Source: Craspedostauros australis | Lineage: Eukaryota | Direction of reading: 5' to 3' | Length of the DNA stretch: 38,315 bases | Assembly (NCBI GenBank): GCA_030167865.1 | Contig: JALAGF010003427.1 | Span: forward strand, 1-38,315 | Shown here: piece after piece, positions 10,301 through 38,315 of the stretch | Layout of the letters: each line of letters starts with the position of its first letter | How positions within the stretch are numbered: position 1 is the stretch's first letter | The notes under the pieces: model-generated | What the model was told of the DNA's origin: nothing | What the model saw: the letters and a program-made list of their open reading frames with translations, nothing else | The model's database searches: none | Made by a program: the position numbers and the translations under genes

Positions 10301-11536
10301 GATACTGCGGTCGTCCCAGCAACTGTGATCGCAGGTGCCGCGTCGGGTTGTGCCGGTATCGACGATTGGTTGTCAGGTTCTGTGTTGGCGTCAGCAGCCG
10401 CTGCTGCCTTCTGCGTTGATGGTTGTGCATCCTTCGCGTTGTTGCCATGTGGGAGAGTATTTGCAGTGCCATTTTGCACGGCGCTTGGTGTCGCGGCTGG
10501 ATGCAACGATGACGCTGCTGTTGTTACTGTTGCTGCGGATGGCGCTGATCCCGGTATGGCCGTTGCAATGGGTATGGCAGCAACCGTGGAAGGTACGTCT
10601 GCCGCGGTCCCATTCGCATTGGCGTACGCTGGTACCGCGACTGCGACCGCCACTGGCGGCGATTCGGCGGATTGGACTTCTGCAGTCGGGGTTGCGTCTT
10701 CGTTTGTTGCAGCAGCTTCTGACGAGGATCCATCTGCTGCTGCTGCCTGGTCGGCGGGATGCGTGCCCGGTATTATGGGAGGCAACCCGTAGCGCCTGCG
10801 GCGCATCTCCTCCTGCTGCTGCAGCTGCGCTTGCTCCTGCATCATGATCTGATGGTAGTGCCGTTGCAGATCCGGGATCTCATGCATGTGCTCCCCCACT
10901 GCCTGTATGCGCTGCTGCTCCTGGAGGATGGTGTCATACCGAGCCTGTCCCTGCATCATCATTTGGTGCAGCTGGAGGTCTCTCTGCAGCTCTTGCTGCC
11001 TTTGTTGGAAGATGAGCTCATCGACGTTGAGACTCCCCAGCCCCAGCGCAGCTCTCAACTGCGGATTTTGCAACTGTTGATGTTGAAAGTTGGGGCGATT
11101 CAGTGCAGGAGGAACCATTTGGGAGAGTGCGAGTACGTCGTTAGGTGTTGCAGGTACCGTGCCGTATCATTTGGTGTCACGTGGTGTTATGTTTGTTGTG
11201 GGAGGGAGGCCAAGACACACGGAATGGTTAGAGAAGGAGCGCTCCGATGTCACGAATATTCGTACGAGTACGATGATGCGTATCAGTGCCATGCCATGCC
11301 ATGCCATGCCATGCATAGATCCACTCGTGTCTCTGCAGGCACCGATGCAAGCATCGGCAAGGAGTCGGATGCAGTCGGATGCAGTTGGGTGTTCGGAACA
11401 GGACCGGCAGCGGACAGTCGTGATGCATCTTCGTGAAAGACAAACACACGGAGCAACGCAAGCTTTGGCCACTTACTGGATTGTTGGCATCATGTCCCTG
11501 CTGGCCGTTTCCACCAAAGGGGTACCGCCCATCCAT
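7375..11536 (-). CDS. Large chromatin-type protein with an atypical PHD finger and a C-terminal Spp1/CFP1/DIDO-like Cys motif; model join(11536..11477, 11073..7375), about 1252 aa
   Basis: PHD-like core MMVCCSQCGTWRHAECGG...IICDRCHEE at about 8550-8675. C-terminal CARSGCPNRHRFDSVFCSDACG at about 7450-7520. Q-rich, K-rich and acidic low-complexity regions lie between. Proposed exon 1 (MDGRYPFGGNGQQGHDANNP) ends at a GTAAGT donor at 11476 and joins in phase 0 at CAACAG|TTG (11074/11073). An unspliced start at 11118 is the alternative. Confidence 0.75.
11287..11316. repeat. (TGCCA)5 pentanucleotide microsatellite in the predicted intron
   Basis: tgccatgccatgccatgccatgccatgcat seen directly. Confidence 0.9.
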
Positions 11537-16667: not shown

Positions 16668-18501
16668 TTACTGATCCTTCCTTTCCTTATCGACGGCTCG
16701 CTCCAGAATCCAATTGACGGTGTCGTTCAGGACCATGGCGCAATTCTCATCCGGCTCTCCGTTGAACATGGAGTGCCACATGCCCTCGTACAGCTTGATG
16801 GTCTTGTCCTTCGATTTGGACTCATCGTAGAGGGCCTGGGAGAGCATGGGATCGGTGACGCGGTCTGATTTGCCGTGCTGCACAATGAATGGAACATCGA
16901 AGTCCTTCAGAGATTGGGAGATCCTTGTCGTGGCATCCTGTGGCATTGCATGTGCGGGAGGAACAAACATTGGTCAGAGTTGAGGGGTTTGCGTTGATTC
17001 GAGTCAGTGTGGTGAGTCAGGACATCGTGCTCTTTCGTACGAGCAGGAAAAGTGAACAAGCAAACGCGATGAACATCATAACTTACGATCATTTCTCGGC
17101 CTGTGGCGATGCGGGGGTTGCGTCCGAAGACTGTCGGACTGCGGGTAAAGAGCGCCTTCTTTTCAGGGAGCTTGAAGGACAGAAACTTGAGATCTCCTCT
17201 GCTGGGAGCGATGGGGAGATATCCAAGAGCGTTGACGACCCCCTTGGGTCCTGCGACCAAGCGGACAGAATCGACGACCCATTGCGGTGGCATCATGTTG
17301 TCGGCAATCTTGCACATGGGACAGATGAATGCGACGCCCGCAAACACGCCGGCATGCTCTTGCAAGATGTGGAATGCCACGGCGCCTCCCATGGACTGTG
17401 ATGATTCAGTCGGAGATATGGTGTTGCATGAATGTCGTAGAGTAGGCAGCATATTCCACACCATACATCGCGGAGCGCCAGAGAAGGGCAATTCGACATT
17501 GTCGACCGAGTGGCAACCAGGACCGATCAGCGAAGCCACAATCACGAGGTGAGTACGAGTATGATGCAGTGCGACGCACATGAGATCACAGCACGAAGAA
17601 AGCAGAGTATTTGATTGTGAGATGCAGGTACAGTCGCAAATACATGCGCATGGCTCCTTGCGATTGTGACATACACTGGCACACAGCCGAAATGAGGAAC
17701 GTTCCATCATGGGACGTGCAATTCATGCGTGGTACGGAGTCATCGAAGGTCCATCAACCGAACTATCCTGCACCATCGTTGATCTGGTTGACAACGCCAA
17801 TGCCATCAGGCAACGCCAATGGGAGCACAACAATCACCATCACACCAGCACACCATCACTAGTCCGAGTACGTCACATACCTCGCCCATCAAAAACGCCT
17901 TGACATCTGGGAAGAGCTTCTTGATTGTTTGAAGGTAGTACGTCGCGACATCGTTGACAAGAACATCAAAGTCCGCAACGAGGGTGAGATGACCATCGCT
18001 CCTGCCATGGCCTTCGTAGGCGATCATGAGCACGGCGATGCCGCGCTGCGCCAAGGTCGAAAAAAGCCTGAGCTTCGTGTAGCACGCATTCTCAGCGTAG
18101 CCGTGACAATGGCACATGACCGCCTTGACCGGCACATCCTTGGGCGTGATGGTGGTCGTGTGCAGCAGCATGCCTCTCGAGTTGGTCCAGTAGCCCTGCG
18201 TGACGCTGACGTCCGATGGGATCTCGCGCAGATGGTCGGAAACCTTGTCGTTCTTCTCGAATTCGTGCAGCAGCATGCGGCGGCTCGCGCCTTCATCGTT
18301 GATGCGCAGGGAGTACGTCGTCAGCTTCCACACGAACACCGTCAGGATGAGCAAGGATGGTGGCCAGATGGATGCCAGGATGTACACGAAGATGCCGATG
18401 GCAAACACGGTCTGCGTCGAGACGAGCGGCGGCGCATCGTACGAATCATCGCGGGAGCCCTCTGCCGCTGCGTCGCCAGGCACTTGCTTGGTTTCGGCCA
18501 T
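16668..18501 (-). CDS. Alpha/beta hydrolase, monoacylglycerol lipase/lysophospholipase family; join(18501..17881, 17395..17087, 16937..16668), about 399 aa
   Basis: HCHGYAE oxyanion motif and YEGHGRSDG. The nucleophile elbow GE|SMGG is restored by splicing (GAG|GTATGT ... CACAG|TCC). Acid motif HGKSDRVTD and base motif YEGMWH. Second intron ATC|GTAAGT ... CACAG|GAT. There is an N-terminal hydrophobic segment VFAIGIFVYILASIWPPSLLILTVFVW. Confidence 0.92.
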
Positions 18502-18543
18502 CTTCAAAGGCAGTAAGTATCCTTCCTCGTGTTGTATCGTCTA

Positions 18544-23530: not shown

Positions 23531-26462
23531 TTATGACGACGGGGCCGGTCGCGAGAATCGGCCACGAGCATTCGTCTCGACGACGGTGGTCTTTCCAGCA
23601 CTGTCGTCACCCGCGGCGGCACCTCCCTCGCCATCGTCGACCTGAACGACGGGGTACTTGTTCTTGATCTTGTCCCACGTGGTCCTCTTGTACACGATGT
23701 TGTGGATGATGTCGACGACGTCATCCTTTGGACAGCGGATCTGGATGGTGGAATCGCGCTCGCGGATGGTCACGGAGTCATTGGTGAGGGTGTCAAAGTC
23801 GACGGTCACGGCGAACGGCACACCGATCTCATCGGAACGGGCGTATCGTCGGCCGAGCGACGCGGTGGACTTGTCGACGCGGGTTGCCAGGTCAGCTTCC
23901 ATCAGTGCTCCCGAGATCTCATCAACCTGATCATTGCGCAATTGCGGTTCGTGTGGAATGTGCGGGTGGCGTGGCATGGTGTATCCGGTTGTACATGAGT
24001 CACAGGCGCAACGAGTGCAGACAGATGCCGCAATGCAAATGGAATAGAGGAAAGCGTATGCGTGAAGCAAATGTGAGATGACGAACGCACATAAAGGACG
24101 AAAGACGAAGTCGTCATCTAACCAACCAACATGCAAGTACTGCAGCAAAACGTACCACGGCGTTGCACTCTGGATTGCTGCTGATGGGAAGGACGGCGCA
24201 CTTTTGGGGTGCGACTTGCGGGTTGAATCCCATGACGCAGCGCTGCTCATCATTCTCACGCTGATAGAACGAATGCTCCAGCAAGGAGTACAGGATGCGT
24301 CCCATTCCGAAGGATGGCTCGATGACCGAAGGGGTGAACTTGACCTGGTGCACCGTCTTCTTGATCTTGCTCCATGTCAGCATTTCCTTTTTGATCTCGA
24401 AGCCGTCCACGGTGGCGACGCCGCTGGATTCCAGCGCGGTCGCAATTGGTTCAAAGTCGGCCCAATTCTCTGCCAGGGCATCCAGGGCGCCAGTCACGGT
24501 TCTGGCGTCGCCCTTGAAGGCCATGCCGAAGGACTTGCGATCGAACTTGAGCTTCGCCATGTCGATCTCGCGGGGGTTGTCAAGCTTCATGGTGGCGACC
24601 ATGGGCGTCTTGGTGGCCTTGGCATGGACGTCGAGATCGTAGCAGGCACGGTCGGCATGTCCGACGCATTCCACCCAGCCGTAGCTGGACTCGATCTCCA
24701 GATCCCAGCAGTCGGCGGCGTAGTGCGCCATCTCGGTGGAGAGATGCTGACGGAAACGCAGACGCGCCGGGTCCATGCCGATCTTTTCCATGTACAGCTG
24801 GGTCCTGGCCATGAAGTAGCCCAGGGTCTGGTTGTTGACGAGCCCTGCCTTGACGGCCTCGCCAATCGCGACTGTCTTGGTCTTTCCAGATCCGAGCTGG
24901 TCATCCCTTCCGAAGAGGACGAGTTCCTTGCCAGCGACGGCAGGGAAGTTGGGATGGTCCTTGTTGTTGGGGTCGACGAAATGCTCGATCTCTCCCATGC
25001 AGAATTCTCTCACGCGCAACAGGCCGCTGCGTGGGGCGATCTCTGCATTCGTCAAGACGTACGCGCATGCGTAAGAGAGGCACGAGTGTGTTGAGAGGGC
25101 GTGGTAGATTCGTGCGGAGCAGTGTGGAGTGCAGCGAAGAAATGAAATTTGTGAGAACATGAATTGGAACAGCGAGGAATGAAGCGCAGTTGTCGTGCTC
25201 ATTGCGTTGTGCTCATTGCGTTGTGCTCATTGCGTTGTGCTCATTGCGTTGTGCTCATTACGTTGTGCTCATTGCGTTGTGTTGTACTGTCTTGCACCAG
25301 GCAACACGCAATGCAACACCAAACGCAGCACCAAATACAAGCCAACGTACCGTTACGGAAACCAAGACCAATCTGGGCGGCGGCGAATGGCATCTTGTCA
25401 GCATTGAGATCCAAGAGACGCTTGAAGTTGACAAAGAGACCCTGGGCTGTCTCTGGTCGCAAGTATCCTACTGCCGTTCCCTCTGGGCCGATGCTGGTCT
25501 TGAACATGAGGTTGAATGGGAAGCACGCGCCGAAGGGATCTCCGTTGGCAGCTTTGCAGCCGTACTTGGCAAGGAGCCCATCCAGCTCCTCCGGGCTGAA
25601 GGCATCCGCTTGCCGTTGGGTCTTGAGGTGATCCTCGCGCTCCTCGGCCGGCATGGTGGGGGTCTTCTCGATGAGGTCATCGATGGCATCTTCCAGCATC
25701 TTGTCAGCGCGGAAGCATTCCCCGGTCTGCTTGTCCTTGACCATGAGATCGGTGAAGCGCTCCACGTGGCCGCTGGTCTTCAAGACGGATTCTGGGGTCA
25801 GGCAGGTGCACTCCATTTCCAGCATGTTCTCCGCCAACACGAAGTGCTTCCTCCAGAGATCGATCATGGCGGCCTGTTGCATTCGAGTTGTTGTGTTAGG
25901 GACGAGAAATAATTGATTAGTTTAGTTGGCGCATTTCATGGAGGAACAGAATATAGTTTTGGATTGTATCATAGGTAGAGTTCAAGTACACAAATGTAGT
26001 AGCAGAGCAGAGTGCGCAGGAACACTTGCATGGTGATCCACTCCACTATCAGTGGCAACAGTTAGACGCAACAGATAGACGCAACAGATAGACACAACAG
26101 CTAGACACGACAGTTAGACCTAACTGTCAGACTCCACTCACCTTGAGGCCGCACGCAGGAGGACCAAGATCGAAGAGCCCCTTGACACCACCATGGATCT
26201 CGAAGGACGGAACGACGAACATCTTGCGCACAACCAAGTCATCGAAGGATTTGCGGTTGAACTGCGGCACGTTGGCCTGCAGCTTGCCCTGCAGATCCGC
26301 GGCGGAGATCTTGAGAGCCTGCAACGCCTTGATTGCCTCATCGATGGCATCCGCAGCAGCGCCATCCTTCTTCAGCTGCCGCACTTCGGATCCATGCTTC
26401 GTGATCTTGGCGTTCAGAGCATCGAGCTCGTCCTGCATCTTGGACTCTTCTTCTGTCGACAT
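23531..26462 (-). CDS. GARS: Glycyl-tRNA synthetase (eukaryotic alpha2 type) with N-terminal WHEP domain; join(26462..26142, 25873..25351, 25042..24156, 23926..23531), about 708 aa
   Basis: WHEP segment ([29 protein letters not shown]), [47 protein letters not shown], motif 2 [43 protein letters not shown], motif 3 [11 protein letters not shown], and anticodon domain [21 protein letters not shown]. Three GT-AG introns give 2127 nt in frame. Confidence 0.97.
25195..25281. repeat. 14-bp minisatellite (GTGCTCATTGCGTT) x6 in GlyRS intron 2
   Basis: Six head-to-tail copies, one with a G>A change (gtgctcattacgtt). Confidence 0.95.
26056..26120. repeat. 13-bp degenerate minisatellite (CAACAGNTAGACR) x5 in GlyRS intron 1
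   Basis: caacagttagacg caacagatagacg caacagatagaca caacagctagaca cgacagttagacc. Confidence 0.9.
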
Positions 26463-26465
26463 CTT

Positions 26466-26505
26466 GCTTAGCTTGGCTTGGCTTGCTTCGATTTGATTTG
26501 ATTTG
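26466..26505. repeat. (GCTTG)n(ATTTG)n pentanucleotide repeats abutting the GlyRS start codon
   Basis: gcttagcttggcttggcttgcttcgatttgatttgatttg. Confidence 0.8.
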
Positions 26506-28093
26506 ATGGGTATGAGCATTGAGGTGTGGTGCAAAAAGCAATTGGATGCGCTCTTCCTTGTGCTCGCAGACTGTCTCCCTCCAACACCGCTGTTGATGTC
26601 CCTCTTGATGTGTGGGTGGATCCTGTCGCACTTTCCCAAACACGCCCGTTTCGCGTGTGTTTCGGTCACAAGATCAACATCTCGTTCGTCCGTTTGTTGC
26701 GTCTCATCATTTGATTACCCCGACTATTGTTGCATCGATTCGTGTCCAAACGTGCCTCTGACTCGAATGGGTCGTGTTTGCATTGTTCGTGAACGGTGTG
26801 GTCGCGAACGTGGAAACGGAGTCGAACAAGGACAAGAACATCAACCTGAACTGATTGTGGAAATCACAAACTGACTGACAAACACAACCAAAAGACAAAC
26901 AAACTGTCAATCATGGCCGGAGAAGGACAGACAGACACGCAACGTTGCATCCAAACGTACAATCTTCCGACTTCTCAGTTCGACATCGGAAGTGGAAATG
27001 CTCTGTTCAGCAGACAACGGGAATGAAACGTGACGAACATGTGCGAGGAGGCGCCAACAAAAGCTCGAACCCATTGTACCGGAACAATCCCACTAGACAT
27101 TTTGAACGGCACTTGGGAACCCAACAGTCATCAAGAGGGAATGAAAAAAACCGATCCGAGCGAAGCAAGAGCGACAGCATTCATACGCCTCTTCGCAAAT
27201 GTCGCGTGGGCACTTCACACCTATCCCATAAGTCAATGCCCTTGATATCCCCAGATTTAGGCCCGATTGTTCTCCTATCGCTCGTCCAATCTTGGACAGT
27301 CGCTGTGGTCATTCACTGTGTTAAGGAATCTATGTCTGCTTTTGGTGATGGATGACCATACTACAATTTTGTCCTGAGCAAGATCTCCGGGTTCGCAATG
27401 CGATGCGTCACCAGTGTGTGACACTATTCGTTGATTGGAGCGTTTCCTTCTCTGATGTCCAGTGCGTCGTCGAATCTGGCTTATTTGTCACGTGTACGTT
27501 TCTGCTTTGCGTTGACAAAAGAGTGAAACAACCCCGCTTCGCGTCCATGTGCTGCATGTCCGACAGTCGATCGACTTCCTCATTTCATGGTTCATTCGTG
27601 TCCTCGACGACTTTTTCGTGGATGCGCATCGCCACGAGACGAAATAGTTTCGCATCGCCACGAGCAAACATACCAAAACATACTGTTTGCCACAAAGCTC
27701 CCACTTTTCGAAAGCCCAGAAACTCCACACAATCTGACATCATGATAAATAACGTGGTAGTTCTCGTTGCTCGTTGTACCTCAACATTCTCTTGGTTGTA
27801 TCAGCCTCCACTTCTACCTCTCTTGATCTTGGATTCGTGTTCGATCGCCTCTGCCTCATGTGCCTCTTCTCCGACACTACCTCATTCGAATGTCCTTCTC
27901 GGTCTTGGACTCGTGTGCTTTCGGCGGCTAGAGCCAGAAATGCCGACAGGCTTGAATGGAACAGAGCGAGTATGTCCCTTCCACAGTCCTCCAACCAGTG
28001 CACAAATCGTCCTCACAAAACGCACTCAAAACGAGCTTGCCGCTTCCGAAAGCCATCCTCTGCCAAACATCGACGCCGTCTCATAAATCCAAT

Positions 28094-28174
28094 CAAGCCA
28101 AACCAAACCAAACCAAGCCAAGCCAAGCCAAGCCAAGCCAAGCCAAGCCAAACCAAACCAAACCAAACCAAGCC
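28094..28174. repeat. (CAAGC/CAAAC)~16 pentanucleotide microsatellite upstream of STAND ATPase copy 1
   Basis: caagccaaaccaaaccaaaccaagccaagccaagcc...caaaccaaaccaagcc seen directly. Confidence 0.95.
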
Positions 28175-28426
28175 GACCAGTACTCCTCGTTCTGCCAACC
28201 CCTCGTCAATCGATCATAGTACTTGTGCATAAATTCTTCCCCAGCATCGACAGCAGCATCAATACCAGCATCGGCATTACATCCTCTGACAACGACACAT
28301 ACTCTCACAGCCGCACATACAGTTAGCTCAGACACCCGCACCCACACTTACATTTTCAGTTCCAGCTCCAGTTCCAGCTCTGGTTCCAGTTACGCGCACA
28401 ATACATCTATCATATACTATAATACC

Positions 28427-31400
28427 ATGGAGATCCAGCACGCATCTAGCCCAGTCAGCCAGCAGCGCCCATCCAAAGCGCAGGTCTTTTCGTCAGGCAG
28501 AGACTTCTACGATGATGGATACACCGAGGAGGAGCAGAACATCAACAACCTCCCATCCACCGTCTTCCCTTCTGCTAGCGCCATGAGCAACAGCGGCAGA
28601 AACATCGACGATGGCAAAGCCGGTGAAACCAGCGATCCATCCGGATCATCGAACGGTGGTGCTCCGTGGAGGGAATCATCGTGCTTTCTCGGCAGAGAAC
28701 CAGAGCTGGAGCAACTCCGAAACCTCAAGAAGCAGATCATCGAGCAGGATCAGAACGTCGATCTCCATGCACAGGAGCCATCGAACGAGAGTGGCCCAAC
28801 GGCACCAACTGGAAAGCCTGACGTGCATCCGGCCGTGCTGCTCTGGGGTATCAGCGGTACGGGCAAGTCTGCGCTCGTCGATCACTTTCTGGCCACATGC
28901 TGCACCTGCAACAGCAGCTCCGAGCATCAACAGCAGCAGCAGCAGCAGCAGCAGCAGATGGACAACGAACAGACAGCAGCAGAAACATCAGCAGCAACTC
29001 CACCTACGGAAGCATCATCGTCATCATGCTGCACCTGCTGCTACATCGTGCGCGGCAAGTCCGACGAGTGCACTGGCCAGAGCAGCCCATTCTCGGCCAT
29101 CATCCAGGCCATCGAGGACTTCACGGCCCAGCTCAAGCGCGGCCCCAAATCGGAGCTCAACCGGCTGCGCGAATGCATCCGAGTGGCCTTCCCCACCGGA
29201 GGCTTCCGCCCGCTGGTGACTGTGATCCCATCCCTCTCCATCCTTTCGCCCAAGCCGGCCCGGGCAGATGCCTCCGTCACGAGCAACTCCGCTAGCTACC
29301 GTGTCAGCCTCAATGGCAGCCAGATCAACGGCGCAGGCTCCTCGACGGCACCGAACGAGGTGTTCACGGAGAACACTTGGAATCAGCTCCAGTACATCTT
29401 CGTGCAGTTCATCAAGGCGATCTCCACGAAGGAACGACCCATCTACATGTTCCTCGACGATCTGCAATGGTCCGCCAGCATCGGCCTGGACCTGCTTGTC
29501 CACCTGGTGGCCGATCGGACCCTGAAGCATTTCATGCTGCTCGGCGCCATCCGCCAGGAGACCAACCCGCACACCGACGAGCCGTTGGAGCTCGCCCCCG
29601 ACCACCCCCTGTCGCAGTGCCTCGTCAAGCCGCTGTCATCGGTCGACGCCCAAGAAGACGGCCAGACCTCTGACATCAACGACGAAGGGTCCACCAGGAC
29701 CGAGTCCACGCCAAGATCCCAATCCAACGACCGCCGCCGTCCACGAACCCTCCATCAGATTGCGCTCGCCAATCTCACGCTCGCTGAGATGACGGCGTGG
29801 CTGTCGACCATGCTGGAACGCGACGATGTGCAGGACCTGTCCCGGAAGATCTACAGGAAGACTGACGGCAACATCTTCTTCACGTTGCAGGTGCTGAGAG
29901 AGCTGGAGCGCAAGAACATCCTCGTCTTCAGCCGCATCTCCTTCCAATGGGAGTGGAATATTGCGAAGCCAGCTGAAGATGAGAGGAGCAACGCCAGCAG
30001 CGCCCAGCTGCCCGTCAGCGACAACGTCATCGGCCTCATCGAGTCCAACATCCGAGACCTCCCCAAGCAGCTGAGGCAGATACTTTGCATCGCCGCCTAC
30101 ATCCGATCGATGTTCGAGATCTCGGTGCTGCACCGAGTTCTGGAGAACGAACTGAAGCACGTGGATGGAGCCTTCGAGGCGACCAAAGGCGCCTTCACCA
30201 CGCAAGACCTCTCGAACTTGCTCGAGCGCGCCGTTCTGGAGCGTCTCATCTCCAACCCCATCGGCGGCACCAAGTACCACTTCGCGCACGACCGCATCCA
30301 GCAGGCGGCGCACGGCATGATCCCCTACGGCGAGGCCCGCGACAAGCTGCGCCTGCGCATCGGCCGCTGCTTGCTGAGGCTGCACCGCACCAAGCAGGAG
30401 CATATGCGCGACGACGAGCACAAGCACGAGTTCGGATATGCTGCTGCCAAAAGTGCCACCGCCAATGTCGCGGCCAACAACAAGGCCAAAGCCGTTCCGT
30501 CCAGAGCCTCTCATACCAAGACGAGGGACAGGGCCTACAGTCATGACAGGACCTCGATGTGCTCTCAATCCACCCATTCTGCCACATCTGCAGAATCGTC
30601 CATCTCGGGCTTCTCCGTTTCCGGCGTGGATGACGGCCTCCTCTTCGTGGCCGCGGACCACTTGAACAGCGTGCAGACCAAGGACCACATGTTCTCCGTC
30701 ACCATGAACCTCGAAGTCGGCGAGAAGGCGCTCGAGATGGCGGCCCTTCAAGCAGCTGCGACATACCTCCAAAAGGCACATGCAGCCCTGCGTCGTGTGC
30801 GAATCGGGGCATCCCACAAGACCGCCGCAAGCCAAGCTGCAACCAGCCAATCGATCTGGGACAGCGACGAGCACTACGACGTCTGCCTGAAGGTCTACCG
30901 TGCTCGCGCCGACGTCGAGCTGTCGCTTGGAAACTACGAACTGGGCTACAGCCTGTGCGACGAAGTTCTCGAGAAGGCCAGATCGATGGACGACAAGACG
31001 CCAACATACTTCTCCATGGCGAGAGCCTTGGGCAGAGAGAACCGTCATGCAGAGACGCTGGACGTGGAGCTGCGCGTGCTCAGATCGCTCAAGTCGTTCC
31101 CCAAGCGATGGTACATGTTCCACATCGCCAAGGCCATGGTGAAGCTCAGGTCCTTCCTGAAGAAAAACACCAACGAGGAGATCCTTGCAAGGCCATGGAT
31201 GACGGATCCAACCAAGAAGTACGTCATGAAGATCTCCGCCGATTTCGCCGTCTGCACCAAGTCGACGAACAACATGCTCCTCGTGGTCCTCAACCTCTGC
31301 AAGATGCTGTCCACCACCATGAAGTACGGCATCTGCAAGGAATCGGCCGGCGCCTTCGTCACCTACGGCCTCGTCGTCGGTGGTATGGGAGACCAAGCCA

Positions 31401-32656
31401 CAGCAGATCGCTGCGCAGAGCTCGCACATACCATCCTGGATCAGGCGGATGGGAAGACCGCCCAAGGCCAAGTCCGATTCATCACGGGCTGGTACATCAT
31501 CCCTTTCAAGGCGTCTTTCCCAGGCATGCTACGAGAGTTCAGGAGGGGATATCTTGACTCTCTGGAGGTCGGGGAGTTCGATATGGGCATCATCAACTAC
31601 CAAGCCTGCGCGTTTGCGGGATTCTCCTACGGATTGGAGCTGGGGCCGTTGCAGAAGGCGGCTGAGGCAGCCCTTGGCCAGATGTCGGCGTACAAAATCA
31701 AAGCCTTCAGCGGCATTGCCGAACACCTGCAAATCATGCTGAGGTACTTCACGGAGCAACAGGCGATCAATTGGCCTGAGCTGGACGCAGCATCCCGCCG
31801 CAATGTCATCACCGAGGATCTGAACCAGTCTGAGGTCGTCTGGAACTGCATGTTCTTCCACACCCGGTCTGTTCTGGCCTTGTTCCATCGGCGGTACGAA
31901 ATGTCAGAGCGGCTCCTCAACAGCTTCCTGACCATATCGGAGGGGGAACCCTCTTACTTGTACATACTCGCAGAGAGTTTCTTTGGTGGTCTGATCGCCG
32001 CAGGGAAGTACAGAGAGAAGGGAAACCGTCGCGAACTCGCAAACCTGCGAAGAAGGATCAAGAGGTTGAGACATGTGGCCAACACGAGAGGACGAATCTG
32101 GATCCATCAAGTGCTCCTGCTGGAAGCGGAAGAGCTCGCGATCACCACGAAGAACAAGGTGCACTCCAAGATCGAGCATGCCTACAACATCGCCATCATC
32201 GCAGCAACTCAAGCTGGTTGCATTCACGAAGCTGCCCTTGCCAACGAGATGGCAGGAGAGCATTTCGCGCAACACGGCTCCAAGGCCATGGTTGGTGACT
32301 ACTTCGTGCACGCCGTTGACTACTACAAGGCGTGGGGTGGCAAGAGCAAGGTGACCGACATCAAGCAGCGTCGCAAGAAGTACCTGAAGACCCTCAATGA
32401 CCCGTACCGTCAGCGTCCCGAGGGTCTGACCAACGATGGCGACGGCAACTATCTCTTCGGCATCACCAAAGATCCTTTCACTGGAGCGATCACCTCGAGG
32501 TGTACAGAACTCGATGCCTTCGCCGATCGCTCCAAGCACGGTGCTGGCGCCGAGTCTTCTGGCGACGCGCTTCAGTTCGGATCAGGGTTCAACGATGCTG
32601 CGCGTGCCTCGATGGGCCTCGAGGATGACGATGTCTCCGTCTTGACCGACATGTAA
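28427..32656 (+). CDS. STAND-class P-loop ATPase (AAA_16/COG3899-like) with long C-terminal helical (TPR-like) region, copy 1, about 1409 aa, intronless
   Basis: FLGREPELEQL, Walker A GISGTGKS (28847-28870), SPFSAI, Walker B MFLDDLQWS, sensor LLGAIR, KTDGNIFF, winged-helix YHFAHDRIQQAA, AADHLN, and C-terminal EAALANEMAG...YYKAWGGKSKV. ATG 28427 (MEIQ) matches the paralogue's start; the track start at 28223 is TTG. Confidence 0.9.
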   Translation: MEIQHASSPVSQQRPSKAQVFSSGRDFYDDGYTEEEQNINNLPSTVFPSASAMSNSGRNIDDGKAGETSDPSGSSNGGAPWRESSCFLGREPELEQLRNLKKQIIEQDQNVDLHAQEPSNESGPTAPTGKPDVHPAVLLWGISGTGKSALVDHFLATCCTCNSSSEHQQQQQQQQQQMDNEQTAAETSAATPPTEASSSSCCTCCYIVRGKSDECTGQSSPFSAIIQAIEDFTAQLKRGPKSELNRLRECIRVAFPTGGFRPLVTVIPSLSILSPKPARADASVTSNSASYRVSLNGSQINGAGSSTAPNEVFTENTWNQLQYIFVQFIKAISTKERPIYMFLDDLQWSASIGLDLLVHLVADRTLKHFMLLGAIRQETNPHTDEPLELAPDHPLSQCLVKPLSSVDAQEDGQTSDINDEGSTRTESTPRSQSNDRRRPRTLHQIALANLTLAEMTAWLSTMLERDDVQDLSRKIYRKTDGNIFFTLQVLRELERKNILVFSRISFQWEWNIAKPAEDERSNASSAQLPVSDNVIGLIESNIRDLPKQLRQILCIAAYIRSMFEISVLHRVLENELKHVDGAFEATKGAFTTQDLSNLLERAVLERLISNPIGGTKYHFAHDRIQQAAHGMIPYGEARDKLRLRIGRCLLRLHRTKQEHMRDDEHKHEFGYAAAKSATANVAANNKAKAVPSRASHTKTRDRAYSHDRTSMCSQSTHSATSAESSISGFSVSGVDDGLLFVAADHLNSVQTKDHMFSVTMNLEVGEKALEMAALQAAATYLQKAHAALRRVRIGASHKTAASQAATSQSIWDSDEHYDVCLKVYRARADVELSLGNYELGYSLCDEVLEKARSMDDKTPTYFSMARALGRENRHAETLDVELRVLRSLKSFPKRWYMFHIAKAMVKLRSFLKKNTNEEILARPWMTDPTKKYVMKISADFAVCTKSTNNMLLVVLNLCKMLSTTMKYGICKESAGAFVTYGLVVGGMGDQATADRCAELAHTILDQADGKTAQGQVRFITGWYIIPFKASFPGMLREFRRGYLDSLEVGEFDMGIINYQACAFAGFSYGLELGPLQKAAEAALGQMSAYKIKAFSGIAEHLQIMLRYFTEQQAINWPELDAASRRNVITEDLNQSEVVWNCMFFHTRSVLALFHRRYEMSERLLNSFLTISEGEPSYLYILAESFFGGLIAAGKYREKGNRRELANLRRRIKRLRHVANTRGRIWIHQVLLLEAEELAITTKNKVHSKIEHAYNIAIIAATQAGCIHEAALANEMAGEHFAQHGSKAMVGDYFVHAVDYYKAWGGKSKVTDIKQRRKKYLKTLNDPYRQRPEGLTNDGDGNYLFGITKDPFTGAITSRCTELDAFADRSKHGAGAESSGDALQFGSGFNDAARASMGLEDDDVSVLTDM

Positions 32657-34090
32657 AGAGGAGCCTGACATCGCATGAGTCAGTAATCTAAGAATAGGAC
32701 ACGATCAAGAGTTACGAACAACGCCATTTTCCACGACTTCAAGGAGGTGCGCAGACCCACGACTAGTTTGAAGAAGTGGAATGTGTGCACTTGGGATCCA
32801 CTGAAGGCACTGAGATGAGCGGTGACGTTGTGACAAACATACATGCCATTGTGTGTTCACACAAACAAACAGACACTGCACTCAAACAGGCACCTCGGAA
32901 ATGAGCGGAACACAGCAAAGTAAAATTACACATTTCTGCTTCCATGCAAACATACAGACAGATAGGAATCTGCCACAGCCAGTTTCCAACGACAGCCAGC
33001 GAGTGAACTCGATGGAACTCTTGACTGGGCTGATTGTTCGTGTAGAAGGCACGGAGTTGTTGTTCGTTGCAGTGAAATGGCCGAAATGAGAAGAAACTCT
33101 GTCTGTCGGTGATGTTTTTTCCACACAGTTAATCTATCTCCCAACTGCCCTTCGGTCATCACGCCCGAAACTCTCTCGCGAACAACACGTTCTGCTCAAC
33201 GTCAGCACCATCAGAAACTATGGCGCAGTCGCTCGTCAAGTCTTGACGTACCGTATTATTAATCCATCGTTCGCACGGAAGCCACAGATTCCCGACGAAC
33301 CGCGCGTCATCAGAACGCACAAAGTGCCCAAGGCTACGTCGGAACAATTGCCTTCTGTGATCGTTGAATCTGGTGAGTTTGTTGGGAAGGATCGGAGAGT
33401 AATCCGAGCTCACCGGGGCATGGTGATGTGTGTGGATTGACTTTTCATCAACTTCTTCGTCGTGGCGGTGTTATGCGCGACTTGGGCGACTCCTCAGTCC
33501 GCTCTTTCGCAATGTGACCGCCGCAGCCATTGCACCTTCCCGCCAACACAATCACTCCTGGGACTGTGCGTGGCATCTGTTGTTGTTCTTGAAGTGCCCC
33601 TCGCTTTCCTCAGTCGACGCTGTGCTTTTTCTTTGGGCCTAATAGGTGGCTCCACTTATTCCTTCAACGAGACAGCATAGTTCGGCGATTTGCGAAGAAC
33701 CTGACACGTCCACCCTGCGCGCTTGCGTCAACTTCCTTCATCGTTTCGACGCTTTCGCGAAGCCTGCCACCAACGAGGCACTCGCACACGAATGTTCGGT
33801 CCCTGCAACAGTGAACCATCACAGAATCTCCAGGTGCAGTGACTTCACAACCCCTCCAAACAGCTACCCACACAGAAACGGCACGATAAACAACAACTTC
33901 TCGCAGACACACGAGAACGCACGAAGTAGACGCGCACAAATGACATAGCTCCAATCGCACCATTCAACACTCACGAATAGGGACGCGCATACCATCCTCA
34001 TTCGTTCGCAAAGAAAATCATAAATCGACATTACCTCCACACGAGCACATACATAACGTCACTGCTGCCATACTTTTGATGCATAGCAAC

Positions 34091-37000
34091 ATGGAGATTC
34101 AACAACGCCATTCCCGTCTCCAGAGGCTCCCGTCGATCGGGGAGGCCCACCATGGTGAACCAGATGCAGACAAGCATGTAATGCTCAACAGTCTGCCCTC
34201 TGATCTCGTCCATACCGACGCCCCTAATAATCCAACTGTTGATCAACCCAATCTGTCTGGCCCAGCAAGCGCCATCGCTCCATGGAAAGATTCATCACGT
34301 TTCCTCGGCAGAGAGGCGGAGCTCGAGCAGCTCAAAGCTCTGAAGGACAAGATCATCGGTGAACACCAGAGCAATGCCACTCCTCCTGCACCGGAATCAT
34401 CTGCTGATGAGGCCAAGGACAAGACCAAGGCAACAACACCACCAGCACCCAAACCAAAGCCAAGGAAGAGACTCGATGTACATCCAGCAGCACTAGTCTG
34501 GGGTGTCAGCGGTACAGGAAAGTCCGCTCTCGTCGATCACTTCCTCGACACGTGCTGCATCTGCAACACTGGCGTCGACCAGAAGCAGCAGCAGCAGCAG
34601 CAGCAGCAGAACAACGACCAGGCAGCATCCTCATCATCCTCTTGCTCCTGCTGCTACGTCCTTCGTGGAAAGTATGACGAGTACACGGGTCAGAGTGACC
34701 CCTTCTCGGCCATCGTCCAAGCCCTCCAAGACTTCACGACCCAACTCAAGAACGGACCCAAGGAAGAACTCGATCGCATGCGTGAATGCGTGCGGAAGGC
34801 CTTCCCCACTGGTGGACTTCGCCCAATGGTGAAAGTGGTGCCATCTCTCTCCATCCTGATGCCCAAGTCAGCCCGAGGCGATACCTCCGTCATCAGCCAG
34901 TCCGTCAGCCGTCGCGATGACTACAGCATGAGCATGAGTATGCACGGCAGCCAGATGAACGGCGACTTATCCGCGCCTTCGTCGGGTGGAGCAGTCACCG
35001 ACAACGCATGGAACCAGCTCCAGTACATCTTCGTGCAGTTCATCAAGGCAGTCTCGACGAAGGAACGACCCATCTACATGTTCCTAGACGATCTGCAGTG
35101 GTCTGCCAGCATCGGATTGGACCTCATCGCACAAATGGTGGCCGATCCCGGGCTCAGAAACTTCATGCTGCTCGGCGCCATCCGTCAGGACGTCAACCCG
35201 CATACTGATGAACCCATGGACTTTTCCCCCGACCATCCTCTCTCGCGATGCCTCGTCGCGCCGCTGTCGCCAGACGCTGCCATCGATAACGACCAAAATG
35301 CAGCTGCTGGGCCTGACGATGCATCAGTCATGACTGCATCCACGTCAATGTCCAAAGTCGGCAAGCGCCGTCATCCAAGGAATCTGCGCCAGATCACGAT
35401 CACCAACCTCACGCCGGACGACATGACCGCATGGCTCTCGAGCATGCTGGACTGCAACGACATCGAAGATCTGTCCGAGAAGCTCTACGCCAAGACAGAG
35501 GGTAACATCTTCTTCACCATGCAGGCTCTCGAAGAGCTGGAGAGGAAGGACATCCTCACCTTCAACCTCCTTTCCCAGCAATGGGAATGGAGCCTTTCCA
35601 ACCCAGAGGATGACGATAATAGCAACGCCGGTAGCGCCCAGCTGCCCATCAGCGATGACATCCTCGGCATCATCGAGTCCAAGCTGCGAGACCTTCCCAT
35701 GCAGCTGCAACAGGTGTTATCCGTTGCCGCCTACATCCGATCGATGTTCGAGATCTCGGTGCTGCATCGGGTACTCGAGAACGAGTGCAAACACGTGGAC
35801 GGTGAGATCGACGATATGGATCGCATATCGACCGCCCAAGAGCTTTCTGACATGCTGGAGACCGCAGTTCTGGAGCGTCTCATCTCCAATCCCATCGGTG
35901 GTACCAAGTACCACTTCGCGCACGATCGCATCCAGCAGGCGGCACAAGGCATGATCCCAGCCGGTGAGGCTCGCGACAAGCTGCGCGTGCGGATCGGACA
36001 CTGCTTGCTGAAGGTATACCGACGCATGCAGGTTCGTCTTCAGAATGAGCACGAGGAGGACTATGAAGAGCCTCACGGGATCAACCATAGGCACAAGAAG
36101 GCGAGCGGGACGGAAGCCGAAGACAAGAGCAACATGTCGTCTGAATCCACGCATTCGACGACGTCGGCCGAAACGTTCACTTCGACCTTCACCACTTCAG
36201 AAGTCGATGACGGTCTCCTGTTCGTGGCCGCGGACCACTTGAACAGCGTACCAACCAAGGACCATATCTTCTCTGCCACCATGAACATGGAGGTGGGTGA
36301 GAAGGCCCTGGAGATGGCAGCCCTCGAATCTGCTGTCGGGTATCTTCAGAAGGCACATGCTTCGTTGCAGCTTGTGAGAAGCAGCGCACCTGCGACGATC
36401 TCCACCAAGACCAAGGGATCTGCCAGAAGCCAGGCTGCTGCCAGCCCATCCATCTGGGACGGCGATGAGCACTACGGTCTCTGCCTGCGGGTCTACTGCG
36501 CGCGCGCTGACGTCGAGCTTTCGCTGGGAAGCTACGAGGTCGGCTACAAGCTGTGCGACGAAGTGCTGGAGAGAGCCCGCTCGTTGGAGGACAAGATGGC
36601 GACATACCTCTCCATGGCAAGAGCCTTGGCCAGACAGGACCGCCATGCCGAAACCCTGGCTGTGGAGCTGCGTCTGCTCCGATCACTGAAGACCATCCCC
36701 AAGCGATGGTACGCGCTTCACATCATAAAATGCATGATGAAGATCAAGTCTTTTCTGAAGAACAACACCAACGAGGAGATCCTCTCAATGCCACTGATGA
36801 CGGACCCAAAGAAGCTCTTCGCCATGAAGGTCGCCGCCGACTTCGCCATCTGCACCAAGGCCACCGGCAACATGCTTCTGGTGATCCTCAACCTCTGCAA
36901 GATGATGTCCACCACCATCAAGTACGGCATCTGCAAGGAATCGGCCAACGCCTTCATCACCTACGGCCTCGTCATTGCCGGTATGGGGGAACAAGCCACG

Positions 37001-38248
37001 GCAGAACGTTGCACAGAGATCTCACATGATATCCTCGATCTGGTGGACGGGAAAACGACCCAAGGCAATGTCCGATTCATCACGAGCTGGTACATCATCC
37101 CCTTCAGCCGTCCTTTCCCAGATCTGCTGCGGCAGTTCAGGAGAGGCTATCTGGATTCTCTCGAGGTCGGAGAGTTCGATATGGGCCTCCTAAATTATCA
37201 AGGCGCCGTCTTCGCGGGAATGCTCTCCGGGCTGGAGGTGGGACCGCTGCTCAAGGCGGCTGAAGCAGTCCTTGATCAGATGGCGGCATACAAGATTACG
37301 GCATTTGGAGGCATCGCCGTGCATCTCCGGGTCATGTTCGCAAACTTCCGAGAAGAAGAGCCGGTCGACTGGCCTGAGTTGGAGGCCTCGTCCAAGCGCG
37401 ACGTCACGACGGAGACTCTGGACCAATCTGAGCTCATCTCGGCTTCGATGCTCTTCTACACCCGGGCTGTTCTGACCTTGTTCCATCGGCAATACGAACT
37501 TGCGGAACGACTGATCCGAAACTTCGTCCTCCTCAATATTGGCGAGATATCATTTCAGTACATAGTGGGGGAGTGCTTCATCACAGGACTGATTTCCGCT
37601 GCGAGGTTTCGAGAGACAGGAAAACGCAGCTATCTCACGACCCTGCGCAAGCTGACCAAGAAGCTGAGAGACATCGCCAAGGCCAGAGGCCAATTCTGGA
37701 TGCACCACGTGCTCATGATGGAGGCAGAAGAGCTCGCGATCACCCTCAAGAACAAGCAGAGCCCCAGGATCCAGCATGCCTACAACCTTGCGATCATCGC
37801 AGCAACCAAGGCCGGCTGCATCCATGATGCTGCCCTCACCAATGAGATGGCAGGAGAGCACTTTATCGAGCACGGCTCCAAGGAAATGGTTGGCGACTAC
37901 TTCGTGCACGCCGTTGACTACTATGCGGCGTGGGGCGGCAAGAGCAAGGTGACCGATATCAAGCAGCGGCGCAAGAAGTACTTGAAGACTCTCAATGATC
38001 CGAACCGTCAGCGTCCAGAGGGCCTCACAGCCGACGGCAATGGCAACTACCTCTTCGGGATCACCCGGGACACCTTCACTGGAGCGATCACCTCGAGATG
38101 CACCGAGCTTAACGTATTCACCGATCGTAGCAAGGGTGGAGATGGTCACGGCAACGCGCTCGTGCTCGGATCGGAGCTTGGGGATGGTCTGGATGGTTCC
38201 GTGGGCCTCGATGATGATGATCTCTCTGTGCTGACTGACATCGATTAA
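34091..38248 (+). CDS. STAND-class P-loop ATPase with helical-repeat region, copy 2 (tandem paralogue), about 1385 aa, intronless
   Basis: FLGREAELEQL, Walker A GVSGTGKS, DPFSAI, MFLDDLQWS, LLGAIR, KTEGNIFF, YHFAHDRIQQAA, AADHLN and YYAAWGGKSKV. Collinear with copy 1 throughout. An alternative in-frame ATG lies at 34079. Confidence 0.9.
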   Translation: MEIQQRHSRLQRLPSIGEAHHGEPDADKHVMLNSLPSDLVHTDAPNNPTVDQPNLSGPASAIAPWKDSSRFLGREAELEQLKALKDKIIGEHQSNATPPAPESSADEAKDKTKATTPPAPKPKPRKRLDVHPAALVWGVSGTGKSALVDHFLDTCCICNTGVDQKQQQQQQQQNNDQAASSSSSCSCCYVLRGKYDEYTGQSDPFSAIVQALQDFTTQLKNGPKEELDRMRECVRKAFPTGGLRPMVKVVPSLSILMPKSARGDTSVISQSVSRRDDYSMSMSMHGSQMNGDLSAPSSGGAVTDNAWNQLQYIFVQFIKAVSTKERPIYMFLDDLQWSASIGLDLIAQMVADPGLRNFMLLGAIRQDVNPHTDEPMDFSPDHPLSRCLVAPLSPDAAIDNDQNAAAGPDDASVMTASTSMSKVGKRRHPRNLRQITITNLTPDDMTAWLSSMLDCNDIEDLSEKLYAKTEGNIFFTMQALEELERKDILTFNLLSQQWEWSLSNPEDDDNSNAGSAQLPISDDILGIIESKLRDLPMQLQQVLSVAAYIRSMFEISVLHRVLENECKHVDGEIDDMDRISTAQELSDMLETAVLERLISNPIGGTKYHFAHDRIQQAAQGMIPAGEARDKLRVRIGHCLLKVYRRMQVRLQNEHEEDYEEPHGINHRHKKASGTEAEDKSNMSSESTHSTTSAETFTSTFTTSEVDDGLLFVAADHLNSVPTKDHIFSATMNMEVGEKALEMAALESAVGYLQKAHASLQLVRSSAPATISTKTKGSARSQAAASPSIWDGDEHYGLCLRVYCARADVELSLGSYEVGYKLCDEVLERARSLEDKMATYLSMARALARQDRHAETLAVELRLLRSLKTIPKRWYALHIIKCMMKIKSFLKNNTNEEILSMPLMTDPKKLFAMKVAADFAICTKATGNMLLVILNLCKMMSTTIKYGICKESANAFITYGLVIAGMGEQATAERCTEISHDILDLVDGKTTQGNVRFITSWYIIPFSRPFPDLLRQFRRGYLDSLEVGEFDMGLLNYQGAVFAGMLSGLEVGPLLKAAEAVLDQMAAYKITAFGGIAVHLRVMFANFREEEPVDWPELEASSKRDVTTETLDQSELISASMLFYTRAVLTLFHRQYELAERLIRNFVLLNIGEISFQYIVGECFITGLISAARFRETGKRSYLTTLRKLTKKLRDIAKARGQFWMHHVLMMEAEELAITLKNKQSPRIQHAYNLAIIAATKAGCIHDAALTNEMAGEHFIEHGSKEMVGDYFVHAVDYYAAWGGKSKVTDIKQRRKKYLKTLNDPNRQRPEGLTADGNGNYLFGITRDTFTGAITSRCTELNVFTDRSKGGDGHGNALVLGSELGDGLDGSVGLDDDDLSVLTDID

Positions 38249-38315
38249 GGATTGGGATATTATTACATTATGCATTACAAACACAGCATTACATCATGCA
38301 AAGGTATACACCTAG

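Follow-up and report, generated by a model that had tools for sequence, protein, structure and literature searches.

Tandem stand-alone STAND ATPases of the COG3899 type in the diatom Craspedostauros australis

Two neighbouring open reading frames of Craspedostauros australis, ORF1 and ORF2, encode proteins of about 1400 residues in which a STAND-type ATPase module is followed by a TPR-like superhelical domain. They lie head to tail on the forward strand of contig JALAGF010003427.1 (NCBI GenBank assembly GCA_030167865.1), positions 1 to 38,315 of which were analysed; this whole stretch of 38,315 nucleotides is referred to below as the window. The reading favoured here, held with a probability of roughly 0.6, is that the pair are old tandem duplicates in a diatom-expanded clade of stand-alone AAA_16/COG3899 (SWACOS-type) STAND NTPases that would act by a general switch-and-scaffold mechanism. 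The original prediction, made from the sequence alone, had recognized the same architecture and proposed a sensor pair resembling NLRs (receptors that join a nucleotide-binding domain to leucine-rich repeats), possibly of bacterial origin.

Both genes are complete and intronless. The frame of ORF1 is uninterrupted from 28220/28223 to 32656, and its ATG is the first in frame after a stop codon at 28217-28219; the frame of ORF2 is open from 33944 to 38248, with an alternative ATG at 34079. Aligned by BLASTP, the two proteins are collinear from start to stop and identical at 859 of 1436 aligned positions (60%), with 93 gaps. They share the MEIQ start and the same architecture, and 1.42 kb separates the ORF1 stop from the ORF2 ATG. 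The features of the pair are given below, where N piece and C piece denote the two halves of ORF1 that were modelled separately (residues 72-668 and 731-1409), pLDDT is the predicted local distance difference test of the models, and dN/dS is the ratio of nonsynonymous to synonymous substitution rates between the paralogues. Conservation of motifs was judged in alignments of 68-104 homologues.

28427..32656, forward strand: ORF1, complete intronless coding sequence, 1409 residues plus stop
28427..28663, forward strand: ORF1 N-terminal low-complexity tail (residues 1-79); no Pfam match, low pLDDT at the start of the model
28664..30421, forward strand: ORF1 nucleotide-binding oligomerisation module (residues 80-665), with P-loop, helical domain and winged helix; AAA_16 match at E 7.8e-17
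28847..28870, forward strand: ORF1 Walker A, GISGTGKS (K147), read from the translation; G, G and K invariant or nearly so
29447..29461, forward strand: ORF1 Walker B, MFLDD (D344, D345), followed by QW; from translation and alignment conservation
29552..29554, forward strand: ORF1 conserved Arg376 (GAIRQ), a putative sensor residue; R305 of the N piece, nearly invariant
30281..30307, forward strand: ORF1 winged-helix motif FAHDRIQQA (H621, D622); F548, H550 and D551 of the N piece nearly invariant
30422..30631, forward strand: ORF1 low-complexity linker (residues 666-735); 39% paralogue identity, dN/dS 0.60
30632..32416, forward strand: ORF1 TPR-like superhelical domain (residues 736-1330), about 28 helices; from the AlphaFold model, fold matches and bacterial homology
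32330..32353, forward strand: ORF1 AWGGKSKV, closing motif of the conserved module; W573 and G574 of the C piece nearly invariant
32417..32653, forward strand: ORF1 disordered C-terminal tail (residues 1331-1409); pLDDT <50, 66% identity to the ORF2 tail
32657..34090, no strand: intergenic spacer with no coding signal; longest stop-to-stop frame 121 residues, no Pfam match in five plus-strand frames
34091..38248, forward strand: ORF2, complete intronless coding sequence, 1385 residues plus stop
34280..36040, forward strand: ORF2 nucleotide-binding module; AAA_16 match at E 5.7e-15 and alignment to ORF1
34502-34525, forward strand: ORF2 Walker A, GVSGTGKS, from the translation
35078-35092, forward strand: ORF2 Walker B, MFLDD, from the translation
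35183-35185, forward strand: ORF2 conserved Arg, R365, from the translation
35915-35941, forward strand: ORF2 FAHDRIQQA, from the translation
36206..38014, forward strand: ORF2 TPR-like superhelical domain; 69% identity to the ORF1 domain
37928-37951, forward strand: ORF2 AWGGKSKV, from the translation
38015..38245, forward strand: ORF2 C-terminal tail (residues 1309-1385), homologous to the ORF1 tail through the final DDD.SVLTD and stop

The outline first drawn for this locus thus stands: two collinear ORFs of about 1400 residues, uninterrupted and some 1.4 kb apart, with the Walker A and B motifs, the conserved Arg, FAHDRIQQA and AWGGKSKV intact in both translations. The short low-complexity start and the roughly 100 residues expected after the WG..KV motif are likewise present, there being approximately 79 (ORF1) and 63 (ORF2) residues ahead of PW..S..FLGRE, where the ATPase module begins, and 100 and 98, respectively, after the final V of AWGGKSKV. 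Paralogue identity over residues 1-85 is 31%. The nucleotide-binding module of ORF1 is interrupted by three disordered low-complexity insertions, and a poly-Gln run within the AAA_16 loops is encoded by AGC/CAG repeats at 28923-28957 and 34580-34609. Retained introns were considered as a source of such insertions and judged unlikely, since both paralogues hold the frame through insertions of unequal length. In the homologue alignment, the C-terminal tail of ORF1 has no family-wide consensus and is conserved between the two paralogues only. The tails of both keep the block GNYLFGIT.D.FTGAITSRCTEL together with the acidic end DDD.SVLTD, neither of them conserved elsewhere in the family; they may represent a short linear interaction motif specific to the pair.

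Searched against Pfam, AAA_16 was the sole family above its cut-off in either protein (62.7 bits for ORF1 and 56.6 bits for ORF2; cut-off 32.6). The match covers approximately 240 residues for a profile of 167 positions because low-complexity loops interrupt the domain. TPR_12 stayed below its cut-off of 30.1 bits in both proteins (16.5 and 15.6 bits). The features that define STAND proteins are present at the level of motifs and models. Both proteins carry Walker A (G..G.GKS/T) and Walker B (hhhhDD/E), and in the Walker B region, numbered by the N piece, D273 is invariant and D274, Q276 and W277 are nearly so. Behind the P-loop NTPase come a helical domain and then a winged helix carrying a conserved His, as seen in the model and in the conservation. 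In the N-piece model, FAHDRIQQA spans a strand (545-548) followed by a helix (551-558); its place corresponds to that of the MHD-type motif in the remaining STAND families, to which it would be equivalent. A C-terminal repeat region, the presumed sensor, is present as a superhelix for which TPR proteins and MalT domain III were the top matches.

That no recognizable input or output domain accompanies this module, as had been supposed, was confirmed at each level of the search. NACHT and NB-ARC were not among the Pfam matches of either protein at E<=0.1, and a few homologues show sub-threshold NACHT matches. Neither protein has a leucine-rich repeat (LRR), death-fold or TIR domain, the C-terminal domain being all-helical and TPR-like. 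No Pfam match to a CARD, PYD, TIR or CC domain was obtained in the 63-79 low-complexity residues ahead of the module, nor to a LuxR/GerE DNA-binding domain, and the region after the repeats is predicted to be disordered. Neither protein gave a match near the cut-offs of NCBIfam or, at E<=0.1, to any family among the PADLOC defence models. Ten plus-strand frames flanking the ORFs were without a Pfam match at E<=0.1, and the kinase, GAF, histidine kinase and cyclase parts of three bacterial fused proteins found no tblastn match across the 38-kb window (E<=1).

The two halves of ORF1 were modelled with AlphaFold (AF2) from alignments of 68 (N) and 64 (C) natural homologues, and the models were compared with 48161 representative chains in a wide fold search. 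The N-piece model has a mean pLDDT of 81.1 and a predicted template-modelling score (pTM) of 0.80, its low-confidence stretches being the insertions. Its top three matches, all of the STAND class, align with it across the P-loop, the helical domain and the winged helix: MalT (8bob_D; Z 14.6, root-mean-square deviation (rmsd) 4.5 over 335 residues), a TPR-bearing STAND protein (6mfv_A; Z 14.6, rmsd 4.2 over 304 residues) and the NB-ARC domain of NRC1 (6s2p_N; Z 14.3, rmsd 4.0 over 244 residues). Further matches included NRC2 (Z 13.4), Apaf-1 (Z 11.5) and Avs3 (Z 10.4). The families returned by Foldseek (E 3e-5 to 1e-3) were again these, with Orc1/Cdc6 first and TM-scores <0.45. An Orc/Cdc6 identity was rejected: the alignments with STAND proteins take in all three sub-domains and have a far lower rmsd, and a repeat domain follows. 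The C-piece model (mean pLDDT 87.7, pTM 0.86) consists of about 28 stacked helices arranged as helical hairpins, with disorder from approximately residue 1337. Its top match in the wide search was an APC subunit (4ui9_O; Z 16.0, rmsd 8.5), followed by MalT domain III (1hz4_A; Z 15.8, rmsd 5.3, 332 of 366 residues); Foldseek gave nothing at E<=1e-3 and generic TPR proteins at E>=1.2e-3. The PDB was also searched by sequence, the single-protein search giving nothing at E<=1 and the profile search only P-loop-level matches at E>=3e-4; neither brought up a close relative of solved structure. The models thus agree with the proposed STAND ATPase and helical-repeat architecture, as do the AAA_16 matches, and a STAND fold, the absence of which would have told against it, is seen in the N-piece model. 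On these predictions, both halves would point to one solved protein, MalT, without its DNA-binding domain.

An exhaustive HMMER search with residues 130-1329 of ORF1 identified 11100 cluster representatives at E<=1e-3, 1262 of them at E<=1e-30; the closest non-self relative is only 39% identical. Together with the AAA_16 scores, these numbers put the observation well outside what chance would give. Among the 150 best relatives, 93 are 1000-1500 residues long, 2 are 1500-1700, 8 exceed 1700 and 47 are shorter than 1000, many of these last being visible fragments. A complete ATPase module is present in 117 of the 150, and 104 of these 117 are stand-alone, defined as having <250 residues before the module and <1550 in total. 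When 39 stand-alone homologues, picked from the higher-ranked full-length matches and not at random, were scanned with Pfam, all had AAA_16 and none had a kinase, GAF, histidine kinase or cyclase domain at E<=1e-4. A transcript of Stauroneis constricta (MMETSP; 1345 residues) has the same stand-alone layout, providing RNA-level evidence in a relative. In Seminavis robusta, a protein of 1216 residues (P0085) bears the public name "Serine threonine kinase with two-component sensor domain" and has AAA_16 as its only Pfam family; the name was probably carried over from fused bacterial relatives.

The family is not new to diatom genomics. Two Atlas clusters with AAA_16 only are mostly from Bacillariophyta, and Table 1 of the Thalassiosira oceanica genome paper lists COG3899 among the most abundant diatom domains, with 42, 48, 11 and 2 copies in four diatoms (PMC3491386); what is given there are counts, with no architecture, structure, phylogeny or function of diatom COG3899. 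In Thalassiosira pseudonana, three genes are described as joining COG3899 with a diatom-specific domain of 80 residues (PMC3478156). In the searchable literature, no paper was found that deals with this diatom clade of stand-alone proteins, be it their architecture, their structure or their function. Catalogued since 2012, the family is multi-copy and uncharacterized. ORF1 and ORF2 are most likely further members of the diatom COG3899 expansion.

The phylogeny of the ATPase domain, which had been suggested as a check, was inferred with FastTree (LG+gamma) from 435 columns of the module in 148 sequences, comprising both ORFs and all module-covering phmmer and HMMER matches (35 of 181 matches lacked full coverage and were omitted); the tree was midpoint-rooted and most of its tips are without taxon labels. 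ORF1 and ORF2 are sisters (support 0.998), in keeping with the tandem duplication proposed for them, and are joined next by the homologue P0034 (0.994). The pair falls within a clade of 72 (support 0.999) made up of 71 stand-alone proteins and P0066, the long N-terminus of which has no Pfam domain. Both named diatom sequences, from Stauroneis and Seminavis, are inside this clade, one on each side of its basal split. Of 38 proteins with >=250 residues before the module, 34 lie in another clade of 37 (support 0.999), with P0066 among the other four; this clade also holds two long C-terminally extended forms and one stand-alone form. Other stand-alone clades, their taxonomy not labelled, are found near this kinase-fused clade. 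On this tree, the pair shows as a lineage-specific duplication inside a deep stand-alone clade, with no direction of transfer given.

Between the paralogues, dN is 0.24 and dS 0.83 over the whole length (Nei-Gojobori), and dN/dS is 0.28 for the ATPase module, 0.26 for the repeats and 0.60 for the linker. Purifying selection therefore acts on both domains, and both copies are taken to be functional genes. The weakest stretch of the repeats, residues 1101-1200, retains 48% paralogue identity, and the repeat region carries motifs conserved throughout the family, in the bacterial fused proteins too. Neither measure supports a sensor that evolves by diversification. The DNA upstream of ORF1 and that upstream of ORF2 have no similarity beyond the start codon. 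To judge from the sequences, the duplication is old, and the lack of upstream similarity fits this age. Contigs of X1, the one public run that has words in common with the region, exist in two forms over 37627-38014, with 17 differing sites within approximately 300 bases of the 3' end of ORF2, of which 11 are at third codon positions and 10, taken singly, are synonymous. The two forms may represent different alleles or strains, or else a further and very close paralogue, and are consistent with a constrained gene.

In bacteria, the same module occurs in a different setting. A pattern scan covering one genome per prokaryotic species recovered at least 563 loci encoding relatives. The best 80 of these have 24-29% identity and come mostly from filamentous cyanobacteria, and also from Bacteroidota and Myxococcota; in 67, Walker A lies >=250 residues from the ORF start, 10 are cut by a contig end, 3 are borderline (236-248) and none is stand-alone. 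The three bacterial proteins that were scanned have the arrangements Pkinase-AAA_16-GAF-cyclase and Pkinase-AAA_16-GAF-(PAS)-HisKA-HATPase. Compared with the window by tblastn (E<=1), these matched ORF1 and ORF2 only, and did so through their own residues ~320-1330; the ORF1 superhelix is homologous to their residues ~765-1328, and an AWGGKSKV-type motif directly precedes the GAF domain in bacterial relatives. Kinase/GAF/histidine kinase proteins were matched by phmmer at E 4.6e-49 to 1e-5, and in the tblastn comparison the matches, at E 1e-39 to 1e-14, cover the two halves of the module. The claim that the module corresponds to the central part of kinase-AAA_16-GAF-histidine kinase/cyclase proteins is therefore upheld by phmmer, HMMER and tblastn alike.

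The suggestion of a bacterial origin fared less evenly. Recent horizontal transfer was rejected: the GC content at third codon positions (GC3; ORF1 0.77, ORF2 0.71) is within the range of five neighbouring genes (0.60-0.80), and identity to bacterial proteins is at most 29%. An older origin is neither favoured nor disfavoured, the stand-alone clade not being nested in the kinase-fused clade of the midpoint-rooted tree.

The mechanism that seems most likely for the pair is drawn from what is established for MalT, Apaf-1 and NLRs. The His-Asp of the winged helix and the repeat domain would hold the ADP-bound module closed; a ligand or partner binding to the superhelix would allow exchange of ADP for ATP and self-association; and separately encoded proteins, recruited to the tails or the oligomer, would then pass the signal on. 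Signalling through recruited proteins is proposed because the protein is without an enzymatic or DNA-binding output. Several points weigh against this account. Its ATP switching, oligomerisation and partner recruitment are put forward entirely by analogy. With the N piece, Orc1/Cdc6 nearly equals the STAND proteins by Z score (13.7), but at an rmsd of 10.6. For helical repeats, Z values up to ~13 are common by the background of the search tool itself, so that Z values of ~13-16, obtained moreover with predicted models and not structures, barely exceed it and lend the fold assignment moderate support. Taxon names are available for just 2 of the 72 clade members, cluster look-ups over 30 proteins having named two, and the window extends only 67 bases past the stop of ORF2. 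Finally, run X1 covers 37270-38315 and a 34-base piece at 32312-32345, and its RNA nature is a guess.

Among the alternatives, the one that survives best, although it is considerably less probable than the reading favoured here, is that the pair are a split signalling module, i.e., the regulatory core of the bacterial fused proteins, now encoded alone. As part of ordinary environmental signalling, it would control in trans a separate protein kinase, histidine kinase or cyclase. The homology of the whole module to the fused proteins, repeats and WG..KV end included, speaks for this, as does the absence of stand-alone forms among the best 80 bacterial loci, and the strong conservation of motifs in the repeats suggests a conserved interaction. 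Nothing kinase- or GAF-like is found nearby in the window, though linkage would not be expected in eukaryotes. Furthermore, the stand-alone proteins form a deep clade apart from the fused ones, so that a partnership in trans would be ancient as well as hypothetical.

It is unlikely that the proteins serve inside the cell as NLR-like sensors for viruses, bacteria or parasites, with the tandem copies acting as a sensor/helper pair. The combination of a nucleotide-binding module with a repeat sensor, and the likeness of fold to NRC1/NRC2, Apaf-1 and Avs3, would suit such a role, as would the strong variation of COG3899 copy number among diatoms as listed in PMC3491386, the tandem duplication itself and the drop in paralogue identity within residues 1101-1200. 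The family also diverges fast, its best identity being 39% compared with 86% for the housekeeping inositol-3-phosphate synthase encoded in the window. However, Pfam finds no effector or adaptor domain, NACHT, NB-ARC or LRR, and there is no PADLOC match; purifying selection is no weaker on the repeats than on the ATPase, and the repeats share many motifs with bacterial signalling proteins, unlike hypervariable recognition surfaces; and the genes are arranged head to tail with the same architecture and no integrated extra domain. The sensor-pair proposal is thereby mildly disfavoured. The split module is placed slightly above it because family-wide motifs in the repeats and purifying selection fit a conserved interaction better than a surface shaped by an arms race.

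Similarly doubtful is a broader proposal, that diatoms possess a lineage-specific, copy-variable repertoire of effector-less, MalT-like STAND receptors serving as intracellular surveillance or infochemical sensors; once bound to a ligand, these would form oligomers with ATP, and the oligomers would recruit separate executioners. If this is true, NLR-type signalling would have been invented independently within a major group of phytoplankton, tandem duplicates like ORF1 and ORF2 supplying its raw material. Least probable by far is that longer genes are present, with the ORFs as their central exons and with kinase or output exons that lie outside the window or were missed: the window does end 67 bases past ORF2, but the tail and stop of ORF2 match those of ORF1, disfavouring hidden exons there, both ORFs share the MEIQ start as well as the acidic tail, a divergent aminoacyl-tRNA synthetase gene lies upstream of ORF1, the 1.4-kb spacer and 1.7-kb upstream region are without a domain, and the transcriptome homologue and many independent assemblies show the same stand-alone length.

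The neighbouring genes are eukaryotic, and one of them places the window among diatoms. They encode a UbiA prenyltransferase, inositol-3-phosphate synthase, an OTU1 deubiquitinase and ankyrin repeats. For inositol-3-phosphate synthase, 7105 relatives were found, the top match, which is unnamed, being 86% identical; the named matches in the best 120 of these are from Trieres, Conticribra, Cyclotella, Seminavis and a metagenome-assembled genome of Bacillariaceae (75-82% identity), and the sole named non-diatom match in that best 120 is a eukprot scaffold labelled Alexandrium. Three further loci and a microsatellite were noted in the window:

7375-11118, reverse strand: uninterrupted ORF of 1247 residues without a Pfam match, in a stretch of strong AT skew
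16907-17710 and 17806-18507, reverse strand: adjacent frames that match positions 82-177 and 3-83, respectively, of the profile Hydrolase_4 (serine aminopeptidase S33)
23531-26714, reverse strand: class II aminoacyl-tRNA synthetase, split over several frames (WHEP-TRS 26127-26714; anticodon-binding 23531-24259)
28094-28174: microsatellite (CAAGC) x16

The 1247-residue ORF, which has weak Atlas leads (0.80) to PHD-finger clusters of low recognition value, may be an orphan or low-complexity diatom gene. The two Hydrolase_4 frames are probably one alpha/beta-hydrolase gene with an intron. The aminoacyl-tRNA synthetase gene is divergent from ORF1, with its 5' end (26127-26714) facing it; unlike ORF1 and ORF2, it appears to have introns, and from its N-terminal sequence it looks like a glycyl-tRNA synthetase. 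The microsatellite lies between this gene and ORF1, approximately 250 bp upstream of the ORF1 ATG, and may be part of the ORF1 promoter or 5' untranslated region.

A large part of the primary production of the sea is due to diatoms, and little is known of how they sense viruses, bacteria and chemical cues within the cell. By the published count, COG3899 is among their more abundant ATPase families (PMC3491386), and its architecture resembles that of switches used elsewhere in innate immunity and sugar sensing. ORF1 and ORF2 are ordinary tandem duplicates in this large, catalogued and unstudied family. What the present analysis contributes is that the diatom clade is consistently stand-alone, that confident models tie both halves of the protein to MalT, and that at least one public annotation, the Seminavis member named as a kinase, is misleading. 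Evidence that the proteins oligomerise on infection, or that their superhelix evolves under positive selection, would add greatly to the interest of the finding.

Among known systems, the closest by sequence are the bacterial, and some fungal, COG3899 fused proteins. Fusion to a Ser/Thr kinase or to an adenylate/guanylate cyclase is the basis of the SWACOS name. COG3899 presumably corresponds to SWACOS, an equivalence that we attribute to Leipe et al. 2004. SWACOS itself appears as an established name for a STAND clade, beside AP-ATPase, NACHT and MalT/MNS. In bacteria, the COG3899 "predicted ATPase" is described as physically linked to CP1 kinases or pseudokinases and to GAF/PAS outputs (PMC12599244). 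Homology to the AAA_16-plus-helical module runs from the GRE.EL helix and Walker A to WG..KV with the same invariant motifs; kinase or cyclase fusion is absent from the proteins, the flanking frames and the 38-kb window. The module is approximately 950 residues long in the bacterial proteins and 1160 in ORF1 and ORF2, where low-complexity insertions lengthen it. Unlike the fused proteins, the pair lack a leading kinase, and no domain of the GAF, PAS, histidine kinase, cyclase or GGDEF type follows the module; they are eukaryotic nuclear genes with native codon usage, are only 24-29% identical to their bacterial relatives and belong to a separate clade (support 0.999).

Immune STAND receptors are more distant. 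NLRs, Apaf-1 and Avs proteins share with ORF1 and ORF2 the order of nucleotide-binding module and repeat sensor, and a similarity of fold (Z of 14.3 for NRC1, 13.4 for NRC2, 11.5 for Apaf-1 and 10.4 for Avs3). The pair differ from them in having AAA_16 in place of NACHT or NB-ARC and TPR-like repeats in place of LRR or WD40, and in being without an N-terminal effector or adaptor; there is, moreover, no sign of diversifying selection between the paralogues. Likeness to Avs3 is confined to the NTPase, with no PADLOC match and no fused effector. Paired NLR genes, as described in plants, encode functionally different partners and are usually arranged head to head, one of them with an integrated domain. 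ORF1 and ORF2, in contrast, are head to tail on the forward strand, 60% identical and of identical architecture, with no integrated extra domain.

By structure, MalT, a STAND transcription activator of Escherichia coli (8bob, 1hz4), is the best match for both halves and has the same order of domains, with no match to it at the sequence level in the PDB searches. ORF1 and ORF2 depart from MalT in having a disordered tail in place of the C-terminal LuxR/GerE domain and a repeat domain nearly twice as long. What the pair represent is a eukaryotic (diatom) version, stand-alone and without an effector, of a signalling module known from bacteria.

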